64,000 nucleotides of DNA from Promethearchaeota archaeon Loki_b31 (GTDB lineage Archaea; Asgardarchaeota; Lokiarchaeia; Sigyniarchaeales; SOKP01). The notes beneath the pieces were generated by a model. The model made no database searches. It was not told where the DNA came from and was given only the letters and a program-made list of their open reading frames with translations. The translations under genes were made by a program, and so were the position numbers. Below are positions 81 through 59,934 of the stretch, piece after piece. The stretch spans positions 19,921 through 83,920 of the forward strand of contig NJBI01000010.1 of assembly GCA_005222975.1 (NCBI GenBank), in the 5' to 3' direction. The first letter of the stretch is position 1. The number at the start of each line of letters is the position of its first letter.

Positions 81-584
81 CTAACTCTTTTCTTTAACTG
101 TTGTTAGAGGGCTACTGGGAGCGTACCCAATGAAATCTTCTTCTTCTCTTTTTACTATGTAAGAAGGGGCGTCAATTTTCTTGCCTAGTACTTGAATGTG
201 GCCGTGAACAATAAATTGTCTCGCTTGATAGATAGTTTTCGCGAACCCTTTCTCAAAGACCATAGTTTGTAGTCGTCTTTTTAATAAGGCCTCTACAGTA
301 AGCGATAACACATCTTCGAATCTTGCTTCTGGACCTACTACGCCGAGCCTGATTAACTTCTTACTTAGCGTATCTTGAACCTCTGCTGCTCTTTCTTTTG
401 ATAATGTTCTAGATTGTCGTGCTATACTTCTCCAATTACCCAGCATGGTACGCATTTTCCAGAACTCTCGTTTATTTCTAAGGCCGTATTTTCCTAGAAA
501 TTCAAGTTCTTCAGCCAACCTTTCTTTTTGAAAGGGATGTTTTGGTTTTTTAAATTTTTTCTTTAAACGTCGTGGATCTCCGAT
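81..584 (-). CDS. rps4: 30S ribosomal protein S4 (uS4), probable non-canonical ATC start
   Basis: [15 protein letters not shown] and [10 protein letters not shown] motifs. The frame extends upstream to (I)GDPRRLKKK, matching the archaeal MGDP N-terminus. ATC at 582-584 follows AGGTGA, and an in-frame TGA lies at 591-593. Confidence 0.95.
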
Positions 585-597
585 TTTTTGTCACCTT

Positions 598-1086
598 TTA
601 ATCCCTTTTAATACCTTTTAATCTTCTTCTCAATACGCCGACTACTAGTCCGTGTCGTCCCGTGCTTTTAGTTTTTTGACCTCTTACTTTTAGTCCTTGG
701 TGGTGTCGTACTCCTTTGTAGCTTTTAATCCGCTTCATTCTATCTATATCGCGTCTTACTGACAATTCTAGTCTATTTCCAAAGATGTGTAAATTTTCTC
801 CGGTAACTAAGTCTTTTTTACGATTAACCATCCACGCGGGAATACCATTTGCAATCGGATCTATAATTATTTCTTCAATTCTGTTTAAATCCTTTTCAGG
901 GAGGGCGCCAATTCTTAAGGCAGGGTTTATACTTGCAACCACAATTATTGCTTGAGCGAATCGTCTTCCAATTCCCATTATTTGAGTTAATCCTTGTTCT
1001 ACTTTCGCGTTTCCATCGACTTGACTCCGAAGTTTGCGAAAGAATAATTTTTCCCGAAAGTTGGCAGGTCTTGTAGTTAAGCTCAT
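598..1086 (-). CDS. rps13: 30S ribosomal protein S13 (uS13)
   Basis: GIGRRFA, IPAWMVNR and SYKGVRHHQGLKVRGQKTKSTGR motifs; adjacent to rps4. Confidence 0.96.
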   Translation of the reverse strand: MSLTTRPANFREKLFFRKLRSQVDGNAKVEQGLTQIMGIGRRFAQAIIVVASINPALRIGALPEKDLNRIEEIIIDPIANGIPAWMVNRKKDLVTGENLHIFGNRLELSVRRDIDRMKRIKSYKGVRHHQGLKVRGQKTKSTGRHGLVVGVLRRRLKGIKRD

Positions 1087-1221
1087 TTTTACTCTAAATT
1101 ATTACTTAATTACTTAATGTAATAATTAACGTTATAATTCTTAATATGAAATTTAATATTAATTTTATGGTTTATAAAGGAAGTAGGAATATTTGGGAAA
1201 AATTTTGAGAAAATCTAATAT

Positions 1222-2715
1222 CTAATATTGGGGGTATCTTATTTTCTCATTTTTCTTTTTATCGATATGTTTAGTACATTTGTTTCTTTTGGATTTGGCA
1301 GTCTTTTCGAGAAGAGGTAATCCAGGTTTAGCATCTTTAATCTTCTTTGACTCGATTAAATCGTTTTCGATTAGCCCGCTATATAAATCTTTTCCTATTT
1401 GGGTTCTTATAATAACCGTATTCCAACCTGAGGGAGAACCAATAGAACCAATAGAAATATCCGCTGCTTCTGATGTCAGATCAAAGCAGATATCACAATC
1501 TTCTCTTGCTAAGTGTGTAATCTCTTTAATAGGGACCGTTAATTCATCCCCAGAATTAGTATAAATAAAAAATTTCCCCTTATTTATGTCGGTTTTTCTT
1601 ACGTCCTTTACGTTAACTTTCAAAACCTCGCAGATTTTTAAAAAGGATTCGTACGAGAAGGACTCCATACAGAAGATGCCAATACGAAATTTGATTTGGT
1701 TTAACGCGGGTATATCGATATTATAAATTTTAGATTTTAATAGCCCTTGCATCATGCAAGGAACTCCAACAACTGCTAATTTGGTTGGATTTTTGTTTAA
1801 ATCATTTAACACACTTAAGGTTGGGTTATTTACGTATTTTGTACCGGTAGTTAAAAGAATATCGTCTTTATTTTGAATTACTATCGGTTCAGGCCTCCAC
1901 GGAGTTCCGCTCATTTTTGCGCCTAGTGCTAGATCGATTTGGTTTGTGTCAAAAAGGTAATGTAAGCAAGTACTGGTAATTCCACCATCCTGACATACTT
2001 TAGCAATACTTTCAATTTTAGTTCTTGCGGAATAAACTTCTATGTAATGTCCAATTGTAGAAACGCTTTTAATTTCTGAAGAGTTTTCTTGAGTCATGTT
2101 CAAGATATCTATGGGTAAATACGTACGAGGGCATACAAAATAGCACATTCCACATTTGATACACACATCTTCATCTAATTTACCAAAACCATTATAAATA
2201 TTTAAACAATTTACAGGACAAACGCCGGCGCATAAACCGCACCCAGAGCAGATATTTGATTCAAACACTGCCTTAACTGGTTCGTAAATAGATTTTACTT
2301 CGGAGGGTTTAACAAAACGGCTTTGAATATCGAAATCCTTAAAAACTGTAGCTTTAATTGCGTCATTATTCCCTTCTATCGTATCGTTGATTTTATTGAC
2401 TATTATAAGGTTTTCATTCTTCAATAATTCTAATAAACTAAGAGTTTTTCTGATATCTATGGAGTTTTTTTTGGAAAATTGTTTTATAGAATCAAAATTA
2501 TTGGAATTATGTTGATTTAAATAGTTAAAAAGTCTATATTTCAAATGCTCTTCATCGAACATTTTGAACAACAGTTTATAGTATTGTTTTTCGCTATAGA
2601 TGCCCGCATCTAAGATTTCCTGCTTAGCGTCAATTAACGCGCGGATCCTATATGAGTCTAAAGTAACAGCTACATCTTTTAAGGTTTCCCATGAAATGTT
2701 AGACTCAGAGCTCAT
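1222..2715 (-). CDS. Coenzyme F420 hydrogenase/dehydrogenase beta subunit (FrhB/FdhB family) with 2x[4Fe-4S] domain and ~140-aa N-terminal extension
   Basis: Two CxxCxxCxxxCP motifs plus QDGGITS, GTKY, VGVPC, IGIFCMESF, CDICFD and ADISIGSIGSPSGW. Confidence 0.9.
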   Translation of the reverse strand: MSSESNISWETLKDVAVTLDSYRIRALIDAKQEILDAGIYSEKQYYKLLFKMFDEEHLKYRLFNYLNQHNSNNFDSIKQFSKKNSIDIRKTLSLLELLKNENLIIVNKINDTIEGNNDAIKATVFKDFDIQSRFVKPSEVKSIYEPVKAVFESNICSGCGLCAGVCPVNCLNIYNGFGKLDEDVCIKCGMCYFVCPRTYLPIDILNMTQENSSEIKSVSTIGHYIEVYSARTKIESIAKVCQDGGITSTCLHYLFDTNQIDLALGAKMSGTPWRPEPIVIQNKDDILLTTGTKYVNNPTLSVLNDLNKNPTKLAVVGVPCMMQGLLKSKIYNIDIPALNQIKFRIGIFCMESFSYESFLKICEVLKVNVKDVRKTDINKGKFFIYTNSGDELTVPIKEITHLAREDCDICFDLTSEAADISIGSIGSPSGWNTVIIRTQIGKDLYSGLIENDLIESKKIKDAKPGLPLLEKTAKSKRNKCTKHIDKKKNEKIRYPQY

Positions 2716-2801
2716 TTTTTTTTTACTAATTTATTCTTTACAATTTATGTTTTTTATTATATGTTTTATATATCATAATTCCGAAAACTCATGCTGTGAG
2801 T

Positions 2802-2843
2802 TAGTTACCTTCTAACTCCTTTTTTTTTAGAAGGGTCATTCTA
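2802..2843 (-). promoter_or_regulatory. Candidate SECIS element (eukaryote-like) directly after the mvhD stop
   Basis: Minus strand reads UAG-A-AUGA-C-CCUUCUAA-[AAAAAAAGGAG]-UUAGAAGG-UAA-CUA. It has an AUGA core, an 8-bp perfect stem and an A-rich apical loop. The 3' core is AA rather than the canonical GA. Confidence 0.6.
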
Positions 2844-3269
2844 TTTCGGGTTAATTTTTAGTTTTGGTAGATGAGGAAGAGCTTCGATTTTGTTGGTGAT
2901 GTCTTCTACTGAGTTAAGGAAATTTTCAACTTCGGCTGCAGAGCAGAAATATTGTTGAATCCTATCTTCAGAAAGGCCTATGTGTTTAAACAACCTCTTT
3001 AAAAATTTGACATGTTCGTATGTATTCAAGTTTCCTTTTCCAAACTCACATTCGCCTTCTTTTCAGGAAATAATAGCTACTCCATCGGCTCCGTTCAAAA
3101 AGCATTCCATTATTAAATGAATTCCAATTCTACCAGTACATCTAACTCTTATTAAATGGAAAGTGCTAGAATACGATTTTCTCATAGTACCTGTTAAATC
3201 TGCTACGGAATACCCTCACTTTTCACATCCAAAAGCAATAATATTTCTTTCTTTTACGCTATTTGACAT
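2841..3269 (-). CDS. mvhD: Hydrogenase iron-sulfur subunit MvhD/VhuD, selenoprotein (Sec18, Sec69), 142 aa
   Basis: From ATG 3269: MSNSVKERNIIAFGCEK-U-GYSVADLTG...IRVRCTGRI...GADGVAIIS-U-KEGECEF...SAAE. TGA codons at 3216-3218 and 3063-3065 fall at conserved Cys positions. Confidence 0.92.
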
Positions 3270-3290
3270 TTATTCTCGCCTATAATCTCT

Positions 3291-5291
3291 TTAATTTTCA
3301 ATTTTGGTTGATATTTTCTTCATAACTTCGATTTCACTGCCCGCGATTCCTTTAATTTCTACCTCAAATTGCTTATTTCTGTAATACTTTAAATCGATAG
3401 CTCTTGCTGGACACGAAGAAACGCACACTCCGCAACCTTTACATTTTAACTCGTCAACAACGGCAATGCCATCTTCAGCTACGATTATTGCTTGATATTC
3501 GCATAATTTTTCGCATCTATGGCATCCCACGCAGAGGAGTTCGTCAACTTCAGCTATAATTAACTCTTGAACGATAGTATCGTAAGAAAGCAATGTAGCA
3601 GCTTTACTTGCAGCGGCTAATGCTGTAGAAACGGAATATGGGATGTTTTTTGGTCCCGCAGCACATCCACATATGTAAATCCCTAATCCCTTAGTTTCTT
3701 GAGGTTTTAAACACCCGTGAATTTCTGAAAGGAATCCATTGGGACCTTTACTAAGCCCCATTACATCAATTATTTTATCTGTACCTTTTGAAGGTATCAT
3801 CCCTGTTGAACACACTACTAAATCAAAATCCAAGTAAGAAACGTCTCCCTCTAAAGAATTGTCGTAAAAGAGTTTCATAGTTCCATCCTCGTTCAGCTTT
3901 ATATCGCCCGGTTTTCCCCTTATGAACATTACGTTCTGTTCTCTTATATTTCTATAATATTGTTCGTTTCCTTTATCTGTGGTTCTAATATCTATATAGA
4001 ATATCGTTATTTCCATATCGGGGTATTCTTGCTTTAACAATTGAGCGTTCTTCAAAGAAACGCTACAACAGACAGCAGAACAATAATTATTTCCTCTTAA
4101 CGTTCGGGACCCAACACATTGGATCATAGCTACTTTTTTAGGCGATTTTCCATCGGATATTCTATATACATGCCCCTCGGTTGGGCCAATTGGACTTAAC
4201 AGCCTTTCTAATTCGATTTGTGTAATGACATCAGGATAAATTCCATACATATACTCTTTACTTTTTAAAATGTTGTATTCGTCCCATCCAGTTGCGACAA
4301 TAACAGCGCCTACCGTAATATCGAGAATTTCAGGTTCTTGATCAAAATCAACCGCTTCACTAGGGCAAGTTCTTTCACAATTTTTACAGTCTATACACAC
4401 ATCCATATCGATTACGGCATACTTTGGCACTGCTTGCGGAAAAGGAATATAAACTGCTCTTCTTTCTCCAAATCCTCGATCAAACTCATTAGGGATCGTA
4501 ATTGGACATTCTATTGTGCATAAACCGCATCCTGTACACTTTTTTTCGTCAACATATCGAGGATTTTTTCTGATTTTTATCTTGAAATTTCCAGTTATGC
4601 CACTAAACTCTATAACATCGCTATAGGTCAGTAAAGTTATATTGGGATGTTTCGAAGCATTTACCATTATTGGGGCCAAAACTCATATTCCACAATCGTC
4701 AGTAGGGAAAATCCTATCGAGCTGTGCCATTTTTCCGCCTATGGTTGGCTCTTTTTCAACCAAATAAACAGATATTCCTTGACTGGCTAAATCTAATGCA
4801 GCATTCATCCCCGCAATTCCAGCACCAATTACTAAAGCTGCTTTAGTTACAGGTATTTCTTTTCGTGGAACAGCTTCTAATTCTCGAGCCCGATTTATTC
4901 CTGCTAATATTAACCTTTTTGCTTTTTTTGTCGCTTTTTCTTTATCGTCTTGATGAACAAAGGAGCAGTGTTCTCTGATATTTACCATTTCAAAATAGTA
5001 GGGACTTAACCCTGCTTCCTGTAATACAGTTCGGTATGTGGGTTCGTGAATCTTAGGAGTGCATGCTGCGACCACTACTCTATTTAAATCTAATTCTAAT
5101 ATATCGCTTTTAATAATTTGTTGCCCCGGATCGCTACAAGTGAAATTATTAACTCTTGCTATGACTACGTTAGGTAAAGGCTCAACAAAGTCTCTTAAAG
5201 CATCGCAATCAACGTGAGCTCCTATATTAACGCCTCATCTACAAATGTAAACTCCTATTCTTAGTTTATCGATGGTCTGTTTATCAGACAT
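3291..5291 (-). CDS. hdrA: Heterodisulfide reductase subunit A, selenoprotein (Sec19, Sec203), 666 aa
   Basis: One continuous frame from ATG 5291 (SD AGGTGA). IGVYICR-U-GVNI has TGA at 5235-5237 and FPTDDCGI-U-VLAP has TGA at 4683-4685; both align with HdrA Cys. Also GAGIAG FAD motif, CSAVCC and ferredoxin motifs. Joins track ORFs 4683..5075 and 3291..4679. Confidence 0.93.
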
Positions 5292-5506
5292 TTAATTCAC
5301 CTTTAGTTGAAACATCACCGAAAATAGTTATTGTTTATACTTACTTCTTAAAATTTTAATAGAAGTCCCTTTGGTTTAGGAATTTTTGAATTAATATATT
5401 TTTAAGCATTTTTTTAAGCAACCTATAATTCCATTTAGATCTGTAAATTTGCATTCAAAATGCAAATCTCATTAACTTTTTTATGATAAATTCATTATTT
5501 TCTAAT

Positions 5507-5692
5507 ATGGTGGAGCAAGAGGAAGGGAAAAAAGAAGATTTTGCTAAGCAATTTATGGCAGAAGAAGGCTTAAAAGGTAAAGCTAAGAGAATAAAAATCA
5601 TGAACATTATAGATAAAGTTGGATACGACAATAGAAAAATAAGAGTTGCCTTTCTACGCTCAACAATAACTGAAAGAGTTCAGCATGAATGA
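5507..5692 (+). CDS. Small hypothetical protein
   Basis: Charged ~61-aa ORF with coding-like composition in AT-rich surroundings; ATG at 5507, alternative start 5483. Confidence 0.6.
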   Translation: MVEQEEGKKEDFAKQFMAEEGLKGKAKRIKIMNIIDKVGYDNRKIRVAFLRSTITERVQHE

Positions 5693-5801
5693 GATTTTTG
5701 ATTATTCTTACAAATATTTATAATTTTCATAAATTAATTTAATGATTATTTATAGAAATTTAATAGAAATTAGAAATTTTAAATTTTAATGGGATTAAAA
5801 C

Positions 5802-7085: not shown

Positions 7086-7110
7086 AATAAAATTTGTCTA
7101 AAAATTAATA

Positions 7111-8343: not shown

Positions 8344-8378
8344 TTTTTTAGATATTTCATAAGTTAATAAAAGCTTTG

Positions 8379-9110: not shown

Positions 9111-9168
9111 TATGAAATTTAGGTATAGTTAAAATTTAAAATATATTAAAATTAAGATTTTTAAGTTA

Positions 9169-9726: not shown

Positions 9727-9863
9727 GCTTTTTTACCCCTATGATTTTCAATCGTATTTGATTAACATTCGTGTTAAAATTTAAACTTATTTTTATTTCA
9801 GTTTGTCCTTTTTATTCGTAATTTTAAACTTCTATTTTTATTGATAAATTTGATTAAATTTAT

Positions 9864-12626: not shown

Positions 12627-13148
12627 TTATTCAAACTTCTCAAAAAATTCCTTATTAAGAAATTTATCAATATTATCCTTTAATTTTTTCCTGACGGAAT
12701 CCAATCCTTCAGGAACAATTCGAGTTTTGCTAACAATATCAATGTATCCTAATTCTGAGCCATATCTTGGAACTAAATGGAAATGGAAATGTTCTATGCT
12801 TGCTCCAGCGTCTTTTCCTTGATTAATTCCAATATTATACCCCATTGGATTGTATAATTCATCAAGTAATAATTGTAAGCCTTGAATCGTTCTTGATATA
12901 TGGACGATTTCTTCTTTCTTTAAATCGGTAAATTTTGTGATATGACGATTTGGAACGCACATGAGATGTCCGGGATTGAAGGGGTATAAGTTTAAAATAA
13001 CAAAGCAGATTTCATCTTCGAAAATTTTTAATGAAACTACTCTTTCGTCATTCATTCTGATAGAGCATAAAATACAATCAACATCAGGTTTTGCTTTTCC
13101 TTGAACATAATCTAATTTTCCTAATGCTTGTAACCATTTCTCGAAAAT
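12627..13148 (-). CDS. HIT-family nucleotide hydrolase, probable ATT start
   Basis: HFHFH histidine triad and NLYPFNPGHLM. The conserved CILC motif lies upstream of the first ATG, so the start is placed at ATT 13146-13148 after AGGTGA. Confidence 0.9.
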   Translation of the reverse strand: MFEKWLQALGKLDYVQGKAKPDVDCILCSIRMNDERVVSLKIFEDEICFVILNLYPFNPGHLMCVPNRHITKFTDLKKEEIVHISRTIQGLQLLLDELYNPMGYNIGINQGKDAGASIEHFHFHLVPRYGSELGYIDIVSKTRIVPEGLDSVRKKLKDNIDKFLNKEFFEKFE

Positions 13149-13177
13149 TACATTTCACCTACTCATCAATTTAATTG

Positions 13178-19314: not shown

Positions 19315-21225
19315 ATGGAAAAATTAGGCGAAGAAAATATACCTAGACCGGAATACCCAAGACCCCAATTTGTAAGAGCAGATAATTGGATAAATCTTAA
19401 TGGAGAATGGGATTTTCAATTTGATGATTTTAATATAGGTTTAAGAGAGCGGTGGTACAAAAAACAAGCATCAAAAAAATTTGATCAAAAGATTATGGTG
19501 CCATTTTGTTTTCAAAGTGAATTGAGTAGAGTTAATGATCAAGAGTTTCATGATATTGTTTGGTATAAAAAAGTAATTAACTTACCAGAAAATTTTAAAA
19601 AAAAGCGAATCTTGTTACATTTCGGGGCAGTAGATTATCTTTGTAGAGTTTATCTAAATGGAGAGTATATAGGGAGTCATGAAGGAGGATATATTGGATT
19701 TTCGCTTGATATTACAGATTTTGTTGAGAAAGAAAATTATTTAGTTATTCGTGTAGAAGATCCAAGCACAGATAATGAGATCCCTCGAGGAAAACAGTAT
19801 TGGAGAAAACAAAATGCGGGTATTTTCTATTCTAGAGTTACAGGTATTTGGCAAACTGTGTGGATCGATTGTGTTGACTTAAATTTCTATTTAAGAAAAG
19901 TAAAAATTACGCCTGATATTGATAATTCACTAATAAATCTTGGATGCGATATTTATGGGATTGGATTTGATGATCTTTATATTCAAGTCTCGATTTTGTT
20001 TGAGAACGATTTAATAACTGAATTTGAAACGAAATTAAATTTCTTAGGTAGTATTAGTAAAAAGAAAAGAGGTAAAAATATTGTTAAAGAGGAAGTTGGA
20101 TTCTACGAAAAAATATTTCGTTTTATTAAAAACCCAAATCAATTTCAACTTAAAATAAGAATTCAGAAAGAAAAATTAGAAATGTGGGATGTTAACACCC
20201 CTAATTTGTATGATCTTCATATTTCAATTTATAACAAGAAAACGGGGGAAATCTATGATAAGGTTAAATCATATTTTGGGATGAGGAAAATTTCTATATC
20301 TAAAGGTATTGAAAGTATTAATGGTTTTAAAACTGCTAATAAGGTAATTCTATTGAATAATAAACCCATATATCAAAAATTATTCTTAGTTCAGGGTTAT
20401 TGGCCAGAAAGTTTATATACTGCCCCTTCTGATGACGCAATAAAACGAGATGTTCAGATTATTAAGGATTTCGGATTCAATGGAATAAGAACACACCAAA
20501 AAGCATTCGATCCGAGATTTCTCTATTGGTGCGATAAGATGGGAGTTTTGGTATGGAGCGAGATCGGAAATGCCTTTGTTTTTTCTAAAGATTCCCAACT
20601 CAGATTAATGAACCAATATATAGAAATGATAGAAAGAGATTATAATCATCCTTCAATAATCACTTGGGTTATTTTAAACGAAGGTTGGGGTGTAGGTAAT
20701 GCTGATAAAGACAAAAGAATGGTTGACTATATCGCTTCTATGTGCTTCTTAATAAAATCAATTGATCCAACAAGAATAATTATAGATAATGCCGGATGGT
20801 GGCATACTATTTCTGATGTTTGTACGAAACATTTCTATTTAGATACAAAATTATTACCAAAAAATTTCGATGAGGAGAAAAGTATAAAATCACCTGATCC
20901 GATAGTTCCAGATTGTTATCTTGAACCTTATCATTATAATGATGAACCAATTGTATATAGTGAAATCGGAGGTTATGGTCTTGACTATTACGAGAAAGGA
21001 ACAAAGGATTTTTTTTATCCGGTATTTAGTTCCCCTGAAGAACTTTTAACCAAGATTACAAACCTTTTAAAGGAATTTGATAGAAGAAAAGAATGGATTC
21101 ATGGATTTTGTTATACTGAGCTTTACGATCAGTTCCAGGAAATAAATGGTTTATTAACTTTCGATAGAGAACCTAAATTTCCACCGCATAAATTGAAAGA
21201 AAAACTAGATACAATGTTTTATTAA
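19315..21225 (+). CDS. Glycoside hydrolase family 2
   Basis: PRPEYPRPQF, LNGEWDF, LHFGAVDY, NHPSIITWVILNEGWG, SEIGG and YTELYD motifs. Confidence 0.92.
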   Translation: MEKLGEENIPRPEYPRPQFVRADNWINLNGEWDFQFDDFNIGLRERWYKKQASKKFDQKIMVPFCFQSELSRVNDQEFHDIVWYKKVINLPENFKKKRILLHFGAVDYLCRVYLNGEYIGSHEGGYIGFSLDITDFVEKENYLVIRVEDPSTDNEIPRGKQYWRKQNAGIFYSRVTGIWQTVWIDCVDLNFYLRKVKITPDIDNSLINLGCDIYGIGFDDLYIQVSILFENDLITEFETKLNFLGSISKKKRGKNIVKEEVGFYEKIFRFIKNPNQFQLKIRIQKEKLEMWDVNTPNLYDLHISIYNKKTGEIYDKVKSYFGMRKISISKGIESINGFKTANKVILLNNKPIYQKLFLVQGYWPESLYTAPSDDAIKRDVQIIKDFGFNGIRTHQKAFDPRFLYWCDKMGVLVWSEIGNAFVFSKDSQLRLMNQYIEMIERDYNHPSIITWVILNEGWGVGNADKDKRMVDYIASMCFLIKSIDPTRIIIDNAGWWHTISDVCTKHFYLDTKLLPKNFDEEKSIKSPDPIVPDCYLEPYHYNDEPIVYSEIGGYGLDYYEKGTKDFFYPVFSSPEELLTKITNLLKEFDRRKEWIHGFCYTELYDQFQEINGLLTFDREPKFPPHKLKEKLDTMFY

Positions 21226-39000: not shown

Positions 39001-39300
39001 TTAAGATTTAGGAACATAAATCTTTAATTTTAATGAAGGATCTAATAATTTTATTAAGCCTTCTTCTTCGTATTGCTTTAATAGCAGATTTACAGTTGAT
39101 ATTCTTAAATCATACTTTAGAGCTAAATCAGACGCTAAAATTGATTTCCGTTTCGAAAGTGATTCTCTAATTTCCTTTTCTATTGAATTAGGTATAAAAG
39201 CATCTCTTTCTACAATAGTGATTTGTTTTGATCTTCCGTATTTTCTACGCAAATTTAAAGTTGCTTTTCTGACCACTAACTTTTCTTCCTTTTCAGACAA
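39001..39300 (-). CDS. rps25e: Ribosomal protein eS25-like
   Basis: Basic N-terminus plus winged helix ILASDLALKYDLRISTVNLLLKQYEEEGLI...KIY. Start taken as TTG 39300 after GTGAT; the track start at 39330 is an alternative. Confidence 0.72.
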   Translation of the reverse strand: MSEKEEKLVVRKATLNLRRKYGRSKQITIVERDAFIPNSIEKEIRESLSKRKSILASDLALKYDLRISTVNLLLKQYEEEGLIKLLDPSLKLKIYVPKS

Positions 39301-39451
39301 TAGTATCACATTAAAAAATTGAAATGTCAAAAATTAAAGATAATTAAAATATTAAATATTTAAATTCTAATAAAATTTTTGATTTATAAACTGATTTAAG
39401 AAAGCTTTTTCCGTATCAAATAGCGAAGCAAATTAGATAGGCATACTCAAT

Positions 39452-40084
39452 TTGAGCGATGATTATTTTTTTAATATCAAACGTAAAAGACCAGAGGAAT
39501 TATATAAGAGCGCATTAGAATATTTTAAGAAGGATACTCTTTCTAGTTATGCCAAGTCTAAATCCATAATGCGTACACAAAGAAAAATTACATTGAGAGC
39601 ATTAGAAATAATGGAACTTAAAGAGAACCATTGTTTAATACTTGATGCTGGTTGTGGTCCTGGATTTGTGGCGATTTACCTGAATGAATTAGGACACACG
39701 ACAATAGCACTTGACATCATTTCAGATTTTCTCAATTTTTACGATATTAAAGATTTAAATCCCATTCTTGCTGATATGTGTTATCCTCCATTTCAACCAA
39801 GCATTTTCGACGCAATTATTTCCATTTCTGCTTTGCAATGGATCTACAAAGATTCAAATTTAGAAAAAAAGCGTTTAGATTTAATTGGTCTTTTTAAATC
39901 GTTTTATAGCATTCTGAAGCCTAACGGGAAAGCAGTTTTTCAATTTTATCCAAAAAATAAAATAATATTGGATGACATTGGAGATATTATTGCTGAGAAT
40001 ACAAAATTTAAGGGAAATTTCATTATTGATAACCCAAATAATCCAAAAAAAAGAAAAATCTTCTTAATCCTAAAAAAGGAGTAG
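39452..40084 (+). CDS. Bud23/WBSCR22-like SAM-dependent rRNA methyltransferase
   Basis: RPEE, Q..ITLRALE, LDAGCGPG, FDAIISISALQW, VFQFYPKN and IDNPNNPKKRKIFLIL match the blocks characteristic of eukaryotic Bud23. Confidence 0.85.
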   Translation: MSDDYFFNIKRKRPEELYKSALEYFKKDTLSSYAKSKSIMRTQRKITLRALEIMELKENHCLILDAGCGPGFVAIYLNELGHTTIALDIISDFLNFYDIKDLNPILADMCYPPFQPSIFDAIISISALQWIYKDSNLEKKRLDLIGLFKSFYSILKPNGKAVFQFYPKNKIILDDIGDIIAENTKFKGNFIIDNPNNPKKRKIFLILKKE

Positions 40085-40261: not shown

Positions 40262-41365
40262 ATGCCTGTCGGATTAGTTGTAATGAAATGGGATGAACGA
40301 GTCGGTACTGAAATCCTAGCGAAGTATCCCGAAGAAATCGTAATCACAGATAAAACTCTTATGCAGGTGTACAGCACGCACGAGTACAGTGGGGAATCGG
40401 GGATGATTAGTTTAATGGTTGGTTCATTAAACATTGCTTCATATTACACGGGACCAGAAAAAGGGTATTATATACTCTTACTTTTAAACCTGGACGATGA
40501 TCCTGATGCGTACGAAGGAGGCTTAATCGATACATCAAAAATCATTTTACAAAATCTTGAGGACGGTGCTTTTATACAATTAGTTCCTTCATTATTTAGG
40601 AGGGTATCTATGTATCCAACCTTAAACGAAGAGCAGCGATTAGCAATTACGTATCAAGACGACATAAAACGAATGATTATCAACCGTTTAAGGGAAGAAG
40701 GCGTAGTTTCAAAATCAGAGTTAATGATTTGGCTAAAAGATAGATATAAACAAGATTTTGTTGATTTAGAAGGAGTTGTCATAGAACTCATTAAAAGAGA
40801 CATCATAAAAGAAACATCAGTGAAGGGGATGCCTTCAGAATTAATCTTTCTAACAAACGATTTAATAATGATGCGCGTTCCAGCAATCCAACTTTTCAAG
40901 GATCCAAGCGATAGGGGCTTACCTTCCCAACTTAGCGATGATTACACAACAGAATCCAAGAAATTTTTTCAAAACTATCGTCCTTCAGAACAAGACAACC
41001 TAAAAGTTATAGAAATTCTCGTAAACCCTCAAGCCTACGAAGTATTGAGATTACTGAGGACCGCTATTGTTACTAAAAACGATCTTGAAAAACTGAAAAA
41101 GAAAGGAGTCGAAGACATAGATGATGTTTTGAAATCTCTATGGGAAAATCAGATGATTCAGGTTTTCCGAGACGATAGGAACAACGAATACTACGCTCTT
41201 ATTTCTGACTTTCACATAGCTTTAATATTTCCAAAATATTTATTGAATGTTATTAAAGCGGAATACGATAAAAAATCCAAAGCCGATCAAGTGCTAATAG
41301 AATATCTAAATGTTCTTGAAAATACGTTTTTAAATTTAAAATCAGCCACAAAATCAAAAGAATAA
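40262..41365 (+). CDS. Longin/uDENN-like N-domain plus tandem winged-helix protein, copy 1
   Basis: GLVVMKWDERVGTEILAKYP beta-hairpin pattern typical of uDENN/NPRL2 longins; two wHTH-like segments; 367-aa paralog of 45981..47084. Confidence 0.7.
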   Translation: MPVGLVVMKWDERVGTEILAKYPEEIVITDKTLMQVYSTHEYSGESGMISLMVGSLNIASYYTGPEKGYYILLLLNLDDDPDAYEGGLIDTSKIILQNLEDGAFIQLVPSLFRRVSMYPTLNEEQRLAITYQDDIKRMIINRLREEGVVSKSELMIWLKDRYKQDFVDLEGVVIELIKRDIIKETSVKGMPSELIFLTNDLIMMRVPAIQLFKDPSDRGLPSQLSDDYTTESKKFFQNYRPSEQDNLKVIEILVNPQAYEVLRLLRTAIVTKNDLEKLKKKGVEDIDDVLKSLWENQMIQVFRDDRNNEYYALISDFHIALIFPKYLLNVIKAEYDKKSKADQVLIEYLNVLENTFLNLKSATKSKE

Positions 41366-41373
41366 TTTTCGTA

Positions 41374-45980: not shown

Positions 45981-47084
45981 ATGCCTGTCGGATTAGTAGT
46001 CATGAAATGGGACGAAAGAGTCGGTACTGAAATCCTAGCGAAGTATCCCGAAGAGATTGTAATCACGGATAAAACTCTTATGCAGGTGTACAGCACGCAC
46101 GAGTATAGTGGGGAATCGGGGATGATTAGTTTAATGGTTGGTTCATTAAACATTGCTTCATATTACACGGGACCAGAAAAAGGGTATTATATACTCTTAC
46201 TTTTAAACCTGGACGATGATCCTGATGCGTACGAAGGAGGTTTGGCTGATGCATCACGGATAATCTTACAAAACCTTGAAGACGAAGGGTATGTGCAGCT
46301 TGTTCCTTCGCTTTTCAGGAGATTGTCAGTGTATCCAACCTTAAACGAAGAGCAGCGATTAGCAATTACTTATCAAGATGAAATTAAAAGGATGATTATC
46401 AATCGTCTAAGGGAAGAAGGTGCTGTCTCAAAATCAGAGTTAATAGTTTGGTTAAAGGACAAGTATAGACAAGGATTTGTCGATTTAGAAGGCATATTAA
46501 TTGAATTGATTAAAAGGGAGCTTATTAAAGAAACTTCAGTAAAGGGGATGCCCTCTGAATTGATTTTTCTTACAAATGACATTTTAATGTTGCGAATTCC
46601 TCCAGTTCAATTACTCAAAGATCCTGCCGATAAAGGGTTGCCTTCTCAATTGGCCGCAGACTATAGAACTGAAACGAAGAAATATTTCCAAAATTATCGT
46701 CCTTCTGAACAAGACAACCTAAGAGTCATAGAAATTATCATAAATCCTCAAGTTTACGAGACTTTGCGATTGTTACGAACTGCAATTGTAACTAAAAACG
46801 ACCTTGAGAAGTTAAAAAAGAAAGGCGTCGACGACATTGACGAAGTTTTGAAAATATTATGGGAAAGGCAAATAATTCAAGTATTCCAAGACGATAGAAA
46901 CAACGAATATTACGCGCTAGTGTCAGATTTTTTCATAGATAAGATATTTCCAAAATATTTGTTGAATGTAATCAAAGCTGAATACGAGAAGAAATCAGAA
47001 GCTGATCAAGTTTTACTAGAATACTTAACTGTCCTCGAAAACGCATATCTTAACTTAAAATCAGCAGTTAAATCCGAAGAATAA
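45981..47084 (+). CDS. Longin/uDENN-like N-domain plus tandem winged-helix protein, copy 2
   Basis: First 88 aa are identical to copy 1; the ATG directly abuts the TAA of the surface-protein gene. Confidence 0.7.
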   Translation: MPVGLVVMKWDERVGTEILAKYPEEIVITDKTLMQVYSTHEYSGESGMISLMVGSLNIASYYTGPEKGYYILLLLNLDDDPDAYEGGLADASRIILQNLEDEGYVQLVPSLFRRLSVYPTLNEEQRLAITYQDEIKRMIINRLREEGAVSKSELIVWLKDKYRQGFVDLEGILIELIKRELIKETSVKGMPSELIFLTNDILMLRIPPVQLLKDPADKGLPSQLAADYRTETKKYFQNYRPSEQDNLRVIEIIINPQVYETLRLLRTAIVTKNDLEKLKKKGVDDIDEVLKILWERQIIQVFQDDRNNEYYALVSDFFIDKIFPKYLLNVIKAEYEKKSEADQVLLEYLTVLENAYLNLKSAVKSEE

Positions 47085-48555: not shown

Positions 48556-48600
48556 AATGTAACTTCTTTTTTCTTTTATTTTTTATTATATTTTCAAATG

Positions 48601-49557: not shown

Positions 49558-49629
49558 TATGTGATAATATTTATAATTAAATGTTTGTACACTGATTTAT
49601 TAATTAAAGATGATCTAAAAATAAAAAAT

Positions 49630-50817
49630 TTAAGTAAATTTACCTTTAGGAACATTCTTAAACAAATCTTTAATTGTAGCTTTTAGTTTGTTGAAAGGTC
49701 TTAAATTTCCCGAAAAGGGCGTACTGATGCCATGATATAAAATTGGTTCTATTTGGTCTTCTACATTTTCGATCTTCCTTAAATTTCCTTCAGATAAGCA
49801 AGAAAGAAAATAGTCATTTTGATATTTTCTAAAAGTTAAAAATCGATACTTTTGAAACCCCAATTTAACAGCAATCCAGCGCGGATACGCGCCAGTGTTT
49901 CCTAACGTATTCGCAGCAATTGCCTCGATTTTGGCAGTTAATAACGATTCTTTCATTTCCATCTCTTCCTCTAGATTCTCAAATTCTCCCGGTGCTTTTA
50001 TGTTCAATTGACCTTCTTTATCAAGTAAGAGCGAAATTACACCAATCGACATTGATGACAATCCAATGTAATCAATTCTTATCCAATCCTCTAAATATGG
50101 AATTTCTTGGTCTGAAAATACATCATGTAATTGTCGATATTCCTTTATAATAAAATTAAGATAACCCTTAAACTTATTATCAATGTCAAATTTTTCTATT
50201 TTTGTTAAATTGTTAATGTCTTTACCTCGTATTAGTTCTGAATAATACTTCGCCATTTGTTCGAGAAACCACTTTCCCTTTTTATCGGGAAAAACTCCAT
50301 AGATTAAATATATGATATTATCCTTTTCGAAGAATTGGCATTTAGCATCTTCGTTATTTTCGGATTTGAGGAGCATCTTGTCAAGGTCTCCACCTAAAAT
50401 ACTAGTAGCAATGAAATCTAAGTTATTTGATAATTCTAATAAATAACTTAATCTACTATTACTTGCAAATAAGGGAATTCTCTCTACCGAGGTTATTCCA
50501 CAGAATTGTATGTATTCTCCTTCTCCCCCTTTTCCGCCCCTTTTTAATATAATCTTTTCGTCGTCTAAAGAAAATTTAGTTGCTACTTGCTTTACTCTGA
50601 CTTTACCTTTTAATTTTGAGGAAGCTGTTGCAATTTTGGGTTTAAATTGTTGGGGGGAAACCTTTTTCGACTCACTAATTTCGGGATCAACATATTCAAA
50701 CAAATTTGCTAAGAATTTTCTACATCTAGGGCAAAGTTGGTCTTCTGGATATGGTTTTACAATTGTATAACCACAATTTTTGCACTTTAGGGTTTTACTA
50801 TTGACTGCTCTAAAAAT
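49630..50817 (-). CDS. Zinc-ribbon plus longin-like domain protein, probable ATT start
   Basis: The frame extends 38 codons upstream of the track start to include CKNC...CPRC. ATT at 50815-50817 follows an in-frame TAA. FFEKDNIIYLIYGVFPDKKGKWFLEQM is a longin-like segment. Confidence 0.7.
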   Translation of the reverse strand: MFRAVNSKTLKCKNCGYTIVKPYPEDQLCPRCRKFLANLFEYVDPEISESKKVSPQQFKPKIATASSKLKGKVRVKQVATKFSLDDEKIILKRGGKGGEGEYIQFCGITSVERIPLFASNSRLSYLLELSNNLDFIATSILGGDLDKMLLKSENNEDAKCQFFEKDNIIYLIYGVFPDKKGKWFLEQMAKYYSELIRGKDINNLTKIEKFDIDNKFKGYLNFIIKEYRQLHDVFSDQEIPYLEDWIRIDYIGLSSMSIGVISLLLDKEGQLNIKAPGEFENLEEEMEMKESLLTAKIEAIAANTLGNTGAYPRWIAVKLGFQKYRFLTFRKYQNDYFLSCLSEGNLRKIENVEDQIEPILYHGISTPFSGNLRPFNKLKATIKDLFKNVPKGKFT

Positions 50818-50916
50818 GTTTTACCAACTCCGCCAAAAAAATTAGGATAGATAATATAAACTAATAATTAATTATTGATGTTTGGAAATAAAAAAGTTTG
50901 TAAATCTAAGTAAAGA

Positions 50917-52008: not shown

Positions 52009-52270
52009 CTCGATTACCTTTTTTTAAAATAGACTATTTGGTAGCAATTTCTTAATAATTTAATATGTTATAACATTTATTTTTTGTCTTTTAACTCCTC
52101 ATTCACTGATTTTTTAGAAACTTGCTGTCCTTCGAATTCAACTATTATAGTTGAGTTATCTTTTTTTTTCTATTTATAAAAGCAAGTGAAAAAACTTAAT
52201 TTTTAAATGTATGAAACCTATTAATTTTATAATATTATTTATAGAAGATAGAGATTAAGTATTTTTTAAA

Positions 52271-53137: not shown

Positions 53138-53264
53138 TTCTTTTTTTCCTAATTTTTTATATATATTGGAATTTAAATTTTAAGCTATTTTCATTATTAT
53201 TAAGAAGAAGAGTTTCGATTCTTAGTGTTATATTTATTATTTTTAAAAATAATTTTGTAAAATT

Positions 53265-55022: not shown

Positions 55023-55039
55023 AGAAAAAAATCTATATT

Positions 55040-56422
55040 TTAAATATAAACCTGAAGCCCCTTTTCTTCTAATTTTTTCAAAAAATAGGGGTAAATTTTA
55101 AGGTTATTTTCTGTTAAATATAATTCTTCTAAAAGATCAAGAGAATTAAGGGTATCTGGAAGTTTAGTTAATTTATTCCTAGACAAGTTTAAAATTTTTA
55201 AATTTTTTAAATTTCCAATTGTATCTGGAATCGTTTCTAACTGATTATCGCCTAAATTTAATAGCTCTAGGGAATTAAGTGAGCCTATTGACAATGGAAT
55301 GTTTACTAACTCGTTTCTTTCAAGATCTAAAGATTTTAGAGATGATAAATTACCTAATGAGGAAGGAATGGTAGTCATTAAATTCCAACTCAAATTCAAG
55401 GTTATTAATGATTTTAGGGATAAAATAGAATCCGGAATTTTTGTTAGTTTATTGTCGTGAAGATTTAAATCTTTTAGGTTTATTAAATTTCCAAAATCGT
55501 TAGGTAATAGTGTAAGCTGGTTTAGTCTTAAATTTAATTGTTCTAATGAGATTAAGGAACAGATTGAGGTTGGAAGATTTTGGAGTTCATTCTTCCAAAG
55601 TAACAATTCTTTAAGCTTAGAAAGCAAACCTATATTCTCAGGAAGTTTATTTAAATTATTTACATTTAAATTAAGGTATTCTAATGAAATTAAAGTGCTA
55701 ATCCACTCTGGAAGTTCTGTTATTTGATTATATCTTAAAGTTAATTTTTTGAGAGAAGTAAGGTATTTAATAGCAATAGGTAATTTTGTTAACCCTTTGA
55801 ACATAAAATCTAACTCCACAATTTTACAACGGTAAATGGTATACTTCAATCTCCAATAAGTCTTTTTCAAGTAAATCAATATAAAATAATTAATCAAAAT
55901 GTCAGCTAATTCCATACGAGTAAATGGTTTCGCACCCTCAGCAAAGCTCAATGTCTCAAAGCCTATTTTAAAATCTTTATCATCTATTTGTTTTATCTCG
56001 TGAATCAAGATGAGTTTTGCGATGCGATCATTTCTTTTTTCTAAGTTTTTAATTATATTTATTAATAAATCAAAAATCGTATCCAAACAAGTTTGAGATT
56101 CTTCATGATGAAGAGCCCATCTTAGTGGGTTCAAAGCTTTCTCTTTAAAATTATATAGTAAAATAAGAGCGGCTTCGTTTCTGATTTTTTCATCTGAGTC
56201 CGAAATAAGTAAATTTTCGAAGAATCTAAAAATCTCCTCCTTCTTTACGCCAGTATTTTTTAAATTATCCCCAATACTTCTTAAAATTTGAATGCTTTCG
56301 TAGCGGTCTTTAACTTTTGTACTATTTTCTATTAATGCGATTAGTTGTTTAACTGCCGATGATACATCGATTATTTTTTTGTTAAATTCGTCAAATATCT
56401 TAGTCGGTGTGCGTCTCGTAAT
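55040..56422 (-). CDS. HEAT-like plus leucine-rich-repeat protein, probable ATT start
   Basis: The frame extends 96 codons upstream of the track start (TRRTPTKIFDEF...FFENLLISDSDEKIR) and is colinear with the paralogs' N-termini. ATT at 56420-56422 follows GAGGGA and an in-frame TGA. About 10 LRRs of 23 aa. Confidence 0.85.
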   Translation of the reverse strand: MTRRTPTKIFDEFNKKIIDVSSAVKQLIALIENSTKVKDRYESIQILRSIGDNLKNTGVKKEEIFRFFENLLISDSDEKIRNEAALILLYNFKEKALNPLRWALHHEESQTCLDTIFDLLINIIKNLEKRNDRIAKLILIHEIKQIDDKDFKIGFETLSFAEGAKPFTRMELADILINYFILIYLKKTYWRLKYTIYRCKIVELDFMFKGLTKLPIAIKYLTSLKKLTLRYNQITELPEWISTLISLEYLNLNVNNLNKLPENIGLLSKLKELLLWKNELQNLPTSICSLISLEQLNLRLNQLTLLPNDFGNLINLKDLNLHDNKLTKIPDSILSLKSLITLNLSWNLMTTIPSSLGNLSSLKSLDLERNELVNIPLSIGSLNSLELLNLGDNQLETIPDTIGNLKNLKILNLSRNKLTKLPDTLNSLDLLEELYLTENNLKIYPYFLKKLEEKGLQVYI

Positions 56423-56435
56423 GTAAATCCCTCAA

Positions 56436-57935
56436 CTATTTATAAATTATTAATCCATTTTTTTCTAATTTACCCAAAAAATCGGGTGTTTCTTCAATAT
56501 TATTAAAGTTTAAATCTAGAATTTTCAATGATTTAAGATTCTCAAGAGATTCGGGAAGTTTTTTCAATTTATTCCCCCATAAACTCAATATCTCAAGAGA
56601 TTTAAGAGATCCCACACAATCGGGTAAATTTTCAAAACGATTCCAACTTAAATTTAAAACTTTTAAATTAATTAACGAGCTAAACGACTTAGGTAAAGAA
56701 GTTAAATTATTATTCCATAGAGTTAATTCTTTAAGCGTAGAAATTTTACCAATTGATTCAGGAAGTTCAATCAACTTATTATCAAATAATTGTAATATTT
56801 CTAATGATTGCAACGACCCAAGCCAAGAAGGAAGTGATGTCAATTTATTTCCTCCCAAACCCAATTTTTTAAGAAATTTAAGAGGCTTTACCCATTTAGG
56901 AAGTCTTTCTATATTGTTCAATCCCAAATCTAATTGTTTAAGAGAAGTCAATCGCTTGAAAGAACCCTTTAATTTGCTTAGATTGTTTCCGTGCAAATCT
57001 AAGACTTCTAACTTTGATATATTCTTTATTGTTTTTGGCAAAGAAGTTAATTCATTAGCTCTTAAATCTAGATGTTTTAACGATTTTAAAGAGCCAATAG
57101 AAAGTGGTAAACTTTTTAGTTTATTATATCTCAAATTCAACACATTCAAGGCCGTTAGTAAACCAATAGAATGAGGAATTGATTTAATTTTATTATAACT
57201 TAAATCTAAGTGAATCATTGAAAATAAAAAGCCAATAGTTTTAGGTATCATAGTAAGTCTATTAAATTTTAAATCTAGAATTTCTAATGATGTTAAAAAT
57301 TCCATAAAATCAGGAAATTTGTTCAAAATTGTCCATCCAAAAACGTGACTACTAACATCGGATAAATCTAATTCAAAAATCAGACCCTCTTTTACCTTAA
57401 AATTAATTTGACCAAATCTTTTTTCCAGATCGGCTACAATAAAATAATTCTCGATAATTCGTGAAAGTTCAAAACTCGAGAAACTTTCAATATCTCTTTT
57501 TTTAAATAAGAGATTTAAATTTTCAACAATTTTCTCATTTCTTATTTTTTTTATTTTATCAATTAACAAGGATTTTGATTGAGGAGTATTAATTTTTCCT
57601 AATATCTTTGAGATCGCTAACAAACATTTTAAGGATTCTTCATGTTTCAAAGCCCATCTCATTGGTTCAAAAGCATTATCCAAAAATAACTTTTCTATGA
57701 CTTTAATTGAATTAAACCTTATAGATTCATGAGAATCTGAAATGAGTAAATTTTCTAATAGTTTGAAAATATCATTAGATTTAGCATCAATCTGAGAGAG
57801 GGTGTTAATGCTTTCAATTCTTGAATCTAAATTATCACTATTGTCTATAATCGATATTAATTGATTTATCGCTGAAATTTTATCTAACTTCTTGTTCTTG
57901 TAATTTTTATTAATTAATTTTGGAGATAATTCCAT
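56436..57935 (-). CDS. HEAT-like plus leucine-rich-repeat protein
   Basis: LLENLLISDSHESIR N-domain followed by about 12 LxxLxLxxNxLxxLP repeats. Confidence 0.9.
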   Translation of the reverse strand: MELSPKLINKNYKNKKLDKISAINQLISIIDNSDNLDSRIESINTLSQIDAKSNDIFKLLENLLISDSHESIRFNSIKVIEKLFLDNAFEPMRWALKHEESLKCLLAISKILGKINTPQSKSLLIDKIKKIRNEKIVENLNLLFKKRDIESFSSFELSRIIENYFIVADLEKRFGQINFKVKEGLIFELDLSDVSSHVFGWTILNKFPDFMEFLTSLEILDLKFNRLTMIPKTIGFLFSMIHLDLSYNKIKSIPHSIGLLTALNVLNLRYNKLKSLPLSIGSLKSLKHLDLRANELTSLPKTIKNISKLEVLDLHGNNLSKLKGSFKRLTSLKQLDLGLNNIERLPKWVKPLKFLKKLGLGGNKLTSLPSWLGSLQSLEILQLFDNKLIELPESIGKISTLKELTLWNNNLTSLPKSFSSLINLKVLNLSWNRFENLPDCVGSLKSLEILSLWGNKLKKLPESLENLKSLKILDLNFNNIEETPDFLGKLEKNGLIIYK

Positions 57936-58029
57936 TAATTCTCGAAATTTGGTTTAATTATTTAAATTTTTTATTTTAATACATTAAATTTCTAATTTCA
58001 TTTTTTATAAAAAAAGAATTATTATAATT

Positions 58030-59934
58030 CTAAAAATATTTCTCTAAAGCAAGCGATTTAATTTTACTTATTGTGGGGTAACTACTTTGTTCATCCCAGC
58101 CTCGTTCGTCATAATAATCGTCTATTAATTTATTGGCAATATCTTGAGTAATAATTACTTCTCCGTAAAAATCTTGGAATTTAAGTACATTTTCTCCAAT
58201 TTTTAATGGTTTAAACCATCCGCTAGGGAATTTATCGTCCTTTCGAGAAAATCCTTCCTTTAAATTCATTAACTTCAATAAATTCCAAGAACGTTCAGCC
58301 GATAGTCTTAATTCTTCTTGATGTAAATTGAATCCAGTAATTAAATTGTATAAATCAGTTACTAATTCTAAACTATAAAATCTATTCATTTGAGCTCTAG
58401 CGCACAATCCTAGAGATGTTAGAACAGTGTACCAATCTTCAGAGTATCTCGTTAGTCGTCCAACATTTACGCCCATTTCTTTTTTGGGTGGATTAAAAAT
58501 TCTAGAGTAAGCGGTTTCGGGAATACCCATCCTGTTAAAATGGCTTTTCATTTTATCCGGAGTTCCCCCAGCGCCAACATAAGTTGGTGATCCACCCGAA
58601 GCTACATGAGCGCCTTTAGGATTTACTACTTGTTCAAATTCCATTGTTCCTAATCGCAAAAACCTAGGTTCGAATATAATATCTAAGCCTTTCACCGTAA
58701 GCATTTCGTTTGAAAATGTTTTATTTTGCTCAGCCAATTTTTTCCACCCATCTGCTAATAAATCCCCGAATCCTTCTCTTTTTGCTGTTATATCGATAAG
58801 GTGCTGAAAAGTCTTAAAATCCCGCTTCCACTCGAAACCTAGTACTTCATTGGTGAGAATATCTCGTTCATTCATTTTACTTATAAATTCGAATAATGCG
58901 GTCATAGTTAATGAGTCCAATCCATATCTACTAATTATATCAAAAACTTTTATCGCTTGGTCGTACGTGTCTAACCCATCAACAGTAAACATCATTAAGG
59001 GGTTAATTATTGAGGATGTGTAATTAATCAAACCGCTAAATTCTCCTTCACATATTTCAAGAATATCTTTATCAGCCATAGGACAAGATGGACAAGCAAT
59101 ACGTCTTTTTTTCATTTTTTTTAAGTACATTCTATCGCTACATTGGCGGGCTTTTTTCTTTTGACCTTTTGCGGTTAAGAACATGCCAACTGGCAAACTT
59201 CTTAACATACCCAATTCAATCCACGAATCTCTAAGAGGATATTTACGAATACGCTCAATAAAACTTGTATATAATTTATCAAACTTTTTTGGTTCTGCTA
59301 TTGGAATCCCTTTTGTCCCTTGAGTCAAAATAGCTTTAAGGTTTTTCGACCCCATAATTGCTCCAAGTCCACCACGCCCTAAAGTTGAAGTTTTATCTAT
59401 TAGCGTCATCGAAGATTTAACAAAATTTTCTCCCGCTTGTCCAATAGCAATTACTCCACTTGAACCATGTTTCCTCTTTAAATAATTAGTTGTCTCAATA
59501 ATATCTTTGCCCCATATTACTTTAGCTTTACATAATTCAACATAATCATCAGATATAAGTAAATATACTGGTTTTTCTGATTTTCCAGTTATAATTATAT
59601 GATCAAATCCCGCTTGCTTCAAGTTAAACGCAAAACTCATACTTCCGCAAGAATTAGCAACGGCTCCGGTCGCCGGAAACTTTGAAATTGCAACGGTTCG
59701 AGAAGAACCAGGTACAATAGTTCCTACTAAGGGGCCAGTTCCAAATATTATTAAATTTTTTGATGAAAATGGATCCGTTAACGGTTTGAATCGATCAGCA
59801 AAAAGTTTACAATTCATCCCGAATCCGCCAATGAACCTTTTAAGGTCTCTGACATCTTCATTAATAACTGACACTCTATTTTCTGTTAAATCAATGTCAA
59901 GTATATTTCCAGTGTAACCAAACCAATCCGTTAT
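58030..59934 (-). CDS. aor: Tungsten aldehyde:ferredoxin oxidoreductase family, probable ATA start
   Basis: GRGGLGAIMGSKNLKA, CPSCPMAD, GLD and YYDERGWD motifs. The conserved N-terminus FGYTGNILDIDLT lies upstream of the first GTG. ATA at 59932-59934 overlaps the upstream gene's TAA. Confidence 0.88.
   Translation of the reverse strand: MTDWFGYTGNILDIDLTENRVSVINEDVRDLKRFIGGFGMNCKLFADRFKPLTDPFSSKNLIIFGTGPLVGTIVPGSSRTVAISKFPATGAVANSCGSMSFAFNLKQAGFDHIIITGKSEKPVYLLISDDYVELCKAKVIWGKDIIETTNYLKRKHGSSGVIAIGQAGENFVKSSMTLIDKTSTLGRGGLGAIMGSKNLKAILTQGTKGIPIAEPKKFDKLYTSFIERIRKYPLRDSWIELGMLRSLPVGMFLTAKGQKKKARQCSDRMYLKKMKKRRIACPSCPMADKDILEICEGEFSGLINYTSSIINPLMMFTVDGLDTYDQAIKVFDIISRYGLDSLTMTALFEFISKMNERDILTNEVLGFEWKRDFKTFQHLIDITAKREGFGDLLADGWKKLAEQNKTFSNEMLTVKGLDIIFEPRFLRLGTMEFEQVVNPKGAHVASGGSPTYVGAGGTPDKMKSHFNRMGIPETAYSRIFNPPKKEMGVNVGRLTRYSEDWYTVLTSLGLCARAQMNRFYSLELVTDLYNLITGFNLHQEELRLSAERSWNLLKLMNLKEGFSRKDDKFPSGWFKPLKIGENVLKFQDFYGEVIITQDIANKLIDDYYDERGWDEQSSYPTISKIKSLALEKYF

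Follow-up and report, generated by a model that had tools for sequence, protein, structure and literature searches.

Predicted near-cognate start codons behind strong Shine-Dalgarno motifs in Lokiarchaeia, and a probable weak start codon on the aIF1 gene

Translation in archaea is described as starting at AUG, GUG or UUG (PMC7531240). Departures from this set are known from a few systems. Bacterial infC, encoding IF3, starts with AUU or AUA and is subject to translational autoregulation, and eukaryotic eIF1 is translated from an AUG in poor context (PMC4705826). In Staphylococcus aureus, cvfC1, ccpN, citZ and infC have AUU or AUA starts that are helped by an extended Shine-Dalgarno (SD) motif (PMC13009471). 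Among archaea, an ATC start was reported for L12ae of Staphylothermus marinus (PMC2678158) and an ATT start for the tubulin AtubA of the Asgard Kariarchaeaceae (PMC13394414). Here we consider five genes of Promethearchaeota archaeon Loki_b31 that an earlier note had predicted to start with ATT, ATC or ATA, hereafter AT[TCA]. They lie on a stretch of 64,000 nucleotides (the window; contig NJBI01000010.1, positions 19,921 to 83,920) and encode ribosomal protein uS4 (rps4), a HIT-family protein, a Zn-ribbon protein (the Zn gene), a HEAT-like/LRR protein (HEAT-LRR) and aldehyde:ferredoxin oxidoreductase (AOR). We put the probability at roughly 0.7 that such genes use weak near-cognate initiation, anchored by a SD motif and carried out by a normal initiation apparatus, probably gated by the level of the fidelity factor aIF1.

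The mode resembles the SD-assisted near-cognate initiation of bacteria, as in infC and pcnB and in S. aureus cvfC1, ccpN and citZ. As in S. aureus, a near-cognate start stands at a fixed distance behind a strong SD and is conserved among relatives. Unlike the four S. aureus sites, there are tens of them here, in a lineage in which the SD is rare overall; ribosomal protein genes are affected, and the starts are predictions from sequence. Two genes are confirmed in E. coli, compared with weak codons in approximately 3% of the genes here. With S. marinus L12ae and AtubA the likeness is that an essential or conserved archaeal gene lacks a valid start and is assigned ATC or ATT from alignment and SD distance, but those cases were reported as one-offs, with no genome-wide rate, switching among orthologs or link to aIF1. 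Like IF3 and eIF1, aIF1 is a fidelity factor whose gene has a conserved poor start (ATT, ATA or TTG at 28 of 29 loci in class Lokiarchaeia), the differences being that aIF1 belongs to the archaeal aIF2 system and that its feedback is here a proposal. Animal mitochondria start translation at ATT, ATA and ATC. They do so without SD motifs, and in many of them a modified single tRNA-Met decodes internal AUA as Met. The same codon set is found at many genes here, but internal ATA is Ile and the starts depend on the SD. A literature search of incomplete coverage yielded no description of such starts being used systematically in Asgard archaea, of ortholog switching or of the aIF1 start.

The source genome (G000) is metagenome-assembled, 3.5 Mb in size with 31.5% GC, 92% complete and 6% contaminated, and the window lies on its contig C17. 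Its uS4 is 67-95% identical to that of genomes labelled mostly Promethearchaeota (Lokiarchaeia). All genome pairs compared for start codons were Asgard; they include G093, a relative from another genus, and G161/G171, a GC-rich (46-49%) pair outside class Lokiarchaeia. ATG, GTG and TTG are referred to as canonical starts.

Table 1. Genes with predicted non-canonical starts in the window and the motifs in front of them (window positions).
Feature	Position	Strand	Predicted start, spacing or stop	Domain match or other evidence
rps4 (uS4), 167 aa	81..584	minus	ATC 582-584	TIGR01018 (archaeal uS4 model) over residues 2-160
rps4 SD motif AGGTGA	591..596	minus	6-nt spacer to ATC; the TGA of the motif is the in-frame stop	
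HIT-family nucleotide hydrolase/transferase, 173 aa	12627..13148	minus	ATT 13146-13148	PF01230
HIT SD motif AGGTGA	13155..13160	minus	6 nt before ATT	
Lokiarchaeia protein with N-terminal Zn ribbon (two CxxC), 395 aa	49630..50817	minus	ATT 50815-50817	
Zn gene SD-like motif GGAGTTGG	50824..50831	minus		anti-SD duplex -9.1 kcal/mol
HEAT-like/LRR protein, 460 aa	55040..56422	minus	ATT 56420-56422	LRR_8
HEAT-LRR SD-like motif GAGGGA	56428..56433	minus		
AOR, 634 or 633 aa	58030..59934	minus	ATA 59932-59934 or ACG 59929-59931	AFOR_N/AFOR_C
2x[4Fe-4S] ferredoxin upstream of AOR	59931..60176	minus	stop TAA 59931-59933	SD of AOR 59938-59947, in the last ferredoxin codons

All five codons and their SD-like motifs were found where the earlier note had placed them, on the minus strand. 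An in-frame stop lies upstream of each, as claimed, at a distance of 2-4 codons and not 1-3. The first canonical codon downstream of the predicted start is 22 codons away in rps4, 31 in HIT, 38 in the Zn gene, 96 in HEAT-LRR and 20 in AOR. These skipped N-terminal segments are coding sequence, judged by their domain-model matches, their CxxC motifs and a substitution bias towards the third codon position. Substitution rates at codon positions 1/2/3 were 0.11/0.07/0.25 for rps4 and 0.19/0.08/0.46 for HIT. The skipped segments include the N-terminus of uS4, the CxxC of the HIT protein, both CxxC pairs (the whole Zn ribbon) of the Zn gene product and the first AFOR_N strand of AOR, in which the AFOR_N match begins at residue 9. 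Gene callers do shorten such proteins, as had been expected: the database entries lack the N-terminus of HIT (142 aa instead of 173), AOR (614 instead of 634) and the Zn gene product (357 instead of 395). Based on this analysis and on the comparisons below, we consider the AT[TCA] starts very probably real.

Comparison of ortholog N-termini, which the earlier note had suggested as a check, bore the prediction out in that relatives hold ATG or AT[TCA] at the same conserved Met position. For rps4 this position is ATG in 52, ATC in 15 and ATA in 3 of 70 other genomes, with at least four switches on a tree of seven neighbouring proteins (FastTree, midpoint root, several weak nodes). HIT was found to start with ATT or ATC in 21 and with ATG in 8 of 29 relatives. 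Among 29 relatives of the Zn gene, 17 lack any canonical start ahead of the Zn ribbon; ATG is present in 6, and 6 are ambiguous owing to an in-frame TTG. HEAT-LRR has ATG in 19 of 22 relatives and ATT only in the closest one. The codon after its ATT, ACG, is a less likely alternative start, because the closest relative has the ATT but not the ACG. AOR also appears to begin at a non-canonical codon, but ACG is as plausible as the ATA singled out before. The SD spacer is 4 nt to ATA and 7 nt to ACG, nine loci of 92-98% identity read ATA-ACG (six), ATG-ACG (two) or ATA-ATG (one), and distant relatives have ATG where the source genome has ACG. With respect to the gene products, the Zn ribbon of the Zn gene stands, and the label "longin" that had been attached to it is a weak lead at most (a Roadblock/longin cluster at 0.81 only; no Pfam match). 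The HEAT-like N-terminus of HEAT-LRR is likewise a lead, with a score of 0.85.

Similar starts are spread over the genome. We aligned the N-termini of ATG-start genes from 1.2 Mb of G093 with their counterparts in the source genome; 8 of 208 counterparts lacked a canonical start, and 7 of these 8 had AT[TCA], rps4 and rps8 among them, so essential ribosomal proteins are indeed affected. In the reverse comparison about 5 of 201 G093 genes lacked a canonical start (rps10, rpl15 and one gene with CTG among them). In a further test, 498 pairs were screened for conservation that extends ahead of the first canonical codon; 20 were picked out, of which about 13 looked credible when inspected. Together the alignments indicate near-cognate starts in about 3% of genes, as a lower bound. 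The window, with 5 in about 58 genes, lies above this rate, and the earlier estimate of about 5 in 50 (10%) does not hold genome-wide. The candidate genes are functionally mixed, and several small GTPase genes are found among them (G000:C35, C58, C75, C78 and C90).

The proposal of systematic near-cognate initiation was upheld by a test of the codon slots that follow a 5' SD at 4-8 nt, restricted to cases in which a canonical start is absent. AT[TCA] occupied 45 of 106 in-frame slots; the out-of-frame count was 16 of 233, and further downstream it was 61 of 652. The in-frame enrichment has p ~1e-14; the control sets AA[TCA] and TT[TCA] were not enriched. An unconditioned version of the test, with canonical starts left in, gave almost no AT[TCA] signal, and it was the conditioned test that revealed it. 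Two apparent cases in the window, an ATA start of hdrA (~5225) and ATT starts of mvhD, were rejected as artefacts of selenocysteine UGA codons, and hdrA has a normal ATG further upstream. The two genes (2841-5291, minus strand) are selenoprotein genes with in-frame TGA, which mimic non-canonical starts in stop-to-stop scans.

Contrary to what had been supposed, the signal is not special to the source lineage. It was present in the source genome, G093, G055 and G161/G171, with 25 of 44 slots in G093, 6 of 14 in a second family (a small sample) and, more weakly, 10 of 61 in G161/G171. In this GC-rich pair (segments L245-L284) aIF2-gamma has an ATT start in both genomes, and rpl2 has ACG and a RadA-like gene ATT in one. 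The codon spectrum tracks base composition: AT[TCA] is used in genomes of 30% GC, and ACG is prominent in the pair of 46-49% GC. About one fifth of the GGTGA-led frames (n=151) begin at such near-cognate codons. Their spacer peaks at 6-7 nt for AT[TCA], as for TTG, and ATG is spread over 4-10 nt. ACG (4) and CTG (3) also occur in GGTGA-led frames at a spacer of 5-7, which speaks against the earlier idea that leniency is confined to the third codon position.

SD motifs are reported to be rare in Lokiarchaeia (PMC7531240, PMC12993045). A SD match of at least 6 was found in 19 of 19 rps4 genes with ATC or ATA and in 30 of 53 with ATG, and within HIT, as within rps4, the AT[TCA] orthologs have a stronger SD than the ATG orthologs. 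The mean anti-SD duplex energy was -7.2 kcal/mol for 20 homology-supported AT[TCA] starts, a set partly chosen with the SD in view, and -3.0 kcal/mol for 141 ATG starts; 95% and 38%, respectively, were at or below -4 kcal/mol. The p values of these comparisons are overstated, as the relatives share descent and the choice among adjacent Ile codons was guided by the SD. These energies refer to the archaeal consensus anti-SD (PMC7531240) and not to the source genome's own 16S end, and the source assembly holds no 16S rRNA gene.

The gene for aIF1 itself is probably another such case. In the source genome (G000:C88, L001:1447-1791, minus strand) it has no canonical codon before the Zn knuckle, and its start is probably ATT. 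At the start position, the 29 readable loci of class Lokiarchaeia have ATT (15), ATA (9), TTG (4) or either ATG or TTG (1). One group keeps ATT at all 15 of its loci, in contrast to most of its internal Ile columns, which are variable. In other Asgard families aIF1 starts with ATA, CTG, GTG or ATG. The protein is intact, with a PF01253 match, the Zn knuckle and the basic loop, and aligns over its full length to aIF1 of M. jannaschii.

We propose that a strong SD would pair with the end of the 16S rRNA and hold the 30S subunit, so that a codon 5-7 nt downstream is put in the P site. Ordinary Met-tRNAi (initiator tRNA, CAU) could then pair at two of three bases, mostly with AUU, AUA or AUC and at times with ACG or CUG, and this may be good enough to get past proofreading by aIF1 and aIF2; we infer initiation with Met-tRNAi and an efficiency below that of AUG. 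Most genes of the lineage lack an SD, which is why the few that have a strong one could lose ATG by one mutation and stay expressed. The weak codon would be held for long in HIT, the Zn gene and aIF1 and would flip among close strains in AOR. We lean slightly towards aIF1 acting in negative feedback on itself and thereby setting how well weak-start genes are read, since aIF1 of Sulfolobus solfataricus discriminates against AUU (PMC4705826) and IF3 and eIF1 autoregulate via poor starts. More tentatively, this may amount to a stringency circuit in Lokiarchaeia, in which aIF1 would limit its own synthesis via the AUU/AUA start and a regulon of weak-start genes would rise as aIF1 falls. Membership of the regulon is similarly conjectural: it might comprise tens of SD-led genes, including several for ribosomal proteins, small GTPases and, in one other lineage, aIF2-gamma.

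Several points weigh against this reading. Some Asgard families have an aIF1 that starts with ATG. An in-frame GTG inside the SD is a possible alternative start at six aIF1 loci of the class and at several HIT and rps4 loci, and the choice of the 20 starts partly by their SD favours the duplex difference given above. In E. coli, AUA, AUC and AUU yield 1-2% of the output of AUG (10.1101/063800), which seems too little for a ribosomal protein needed in stoichiometric amounts, unless start codons are discriminated less strictly than the sequences show.

The alternative that survives best is unregulated drift. ATG would decay where a strong SD cushions the loss, given slow growth, a mutational bias towards AT and weak selection on expression, and aIF1 would be one more such gene. 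This agrees with a codon spectrum that follows base composition, with the mixed gene set and with the rapid flips in AOR, and for most genes it is compatible with the explanation we favour. As an account of the whole pattern we find it doubtful: aIF1 avoids ATG class-wide by way of ATT, ATA and TTG and in several other families by way of ATA, CTG and GTG. Moreover, the ATT of HIT (retained in 21 of 22) and the ATC that rps4 keeps in one clade, a rare codon at 16% of Ile codons, vary less than do most Ile columns inside the genes.

Globally relaxed fidelity is unlikely. It would require a change in aIF1, aIF2, a P-site protein tail, rRNA or tRNAi modification, after which AUH (AUU, AUC or AUA) would roughly equal AUG and the codons would be neutral. 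Its attraction is that essential ribosomal genes tolerate the codons, that ATG and ATA differ among 93%-identical AOR genes, and that an E. coli-like efficiency seems too low for ribosomal proteins. Genes for aIF1, aIF1A, aIF2-beta, aIF2-gamma and aIF5B were found in the source genome; aIF2-alpha is missing from the assembly and present in 28 of 30 family genomes, and its absence is probably an assembly gap. Loop 1 of aIF1 is RKWG instead of R[RK][YF]G, but the W loop also occurs in families with an ATG-start aIF1, and families of the class with the Y loop also use ATA. uS9 (G000:C57 44555-44984) ends in QKSFR rather than QKSYR, apparently a common ending in the family (the pattern search was too loose for more), but the terminal Arg is kept and G161/G171 have QKSYR yet use ATT and ACG starts. 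In DNA sequence the tRNAi is canonical: A1-U72, three G-C pairs and CAT are all there, and its T-loop carries an intron. At the level of sequence there was no sign of the altered aIF1 or initiator tRNA that the earlier note had invoked. Furthermore, the strong SD needed by AT[TCA] is not expected if these codons equal ATG, and a conserved weak start on aIF1 is sensible only with discrimination still working.

Other candidate determinants fared no better. A mitochondrial-type code was rejected, as ATA behaves as an Ile codon: internal ATA aligns with Ile at 65% and with Met at 2.4%, close to ATT and ATC. No correspondence was seen between the uS13 tail and the start codon of rps4. Loss of TiaS (agmatidine synthetase, PF08489), which was not found in 41 class Lokiarchaeia genomes or in five other Asgard families and is present in most others, does not track the trait, and families with TiaS also have an ATA-start aIF1. 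ATA makes up a third of Ile codons despite no TiaS being found, and a search for an Ile2 tRNA gave none. The eS25 gene lies head-to-head with an S-adenosylmethionine (SAM) methyltransferase gene (window 39001-40084) for which NCBIfam matches are to a generic methyltransferase only; this putative enzyme could bear on start selection if P-site rRNA were its target.

Translational coupling, in which ribosomes that have finished the preceding gene would start again at the closest near-cognate codon and bypass the fidelity checks, is suggested by AOR, where the ferredoxin stop overlaps the ATA in the style of an ATGA overlap, and by rps4 and HEAT-LRR, which start 13 nt behind a stop codon (that of rps13 in the case of rps4). 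It was rejected as a general cause, for which it is very improbable: an upstream stop is found at 20 nt or less from 4 of 18 such starts and from 16 of 138 ATG starts (p 0.25), the Zn gene is separated by 99 nt from its closest upstream stop, and the neighbour of aIF1 is divergent. Coupling may help at AOR only.

RNA processing would create an ATG by splicing of short bulge-helix-bulge-like mRNA introns, or by editing, and hairpin inserts of 29-31 nt do interrupt aIF2-gamma, rps11, a thiolase and other genes in the source genome. For the start codons we consider it highly improbable, since rps4 offers no such option, the other genes offer only weak geometries, no better than chance, whose splicing would remove the SD or conserved residues, and the ATG orthologs keep the same spacing with no insert. 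Sequencing or assembly errors and pseudogenes, which a metagenome-assembled genome of the completeness and contamination given above might suggest, can be dismissed because, for a given gene, as many as 21 independent assemblies show the same codons, in intact frames under purifying selection.

The inserts themselves were observed as follows. rps11 (G000:C17 ~19390-19811, minus strand, just left of the window) has an ATT start and, near its 3' end, a 31-nt hairpin insert; the insert is absent from about 50 relatives, and taking it out restores the conserved C-terminus. aIF2-gamma (G000:C32, minus strand) carries a 29-nt insert with a stop inside the P-loop and a relaxed bulge-helix-bulge geometry, and has a long N-terminal extension resembling a helix-hairpin-helix domain. 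More inserts of 28-32 nt, candidate mRNA micro-introns, were seen at G000:C12, C16 (three) and C83 and at G093 ~1129380 (AAA+ ATPase, thiolase, rpl11-like in G093). Our literature search found no report on Asgard mRNA introns. Elsewhere in the window, two paralogs with identical N-termini (40262-41365 and 45981-47084) flank the gene of a 1410-aa membrane protein.

For SD-anchored initiation at weak codons, the consequences begin with annotation. If a few percent of genes, core ribosomal proteins included, start with AT[TCA], Asgard proteomes in databases would be systematically shortened, as is seen for three of the five genes here. Structure prediction and cloning are affected by this, as are searches for eukaryote-like proteins, and one published tubulin already needed manual correction. 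The weak start of aIF1 offers a direct route to the question of whether archaeal aIF1 is autoregulated as IF3 and eIF1 are. The stringency circuit, if true, would be the archaeal counterpart of IF3/eIF1 autoregulation, and non-AUG control in eukaryotes might have grown out of it.

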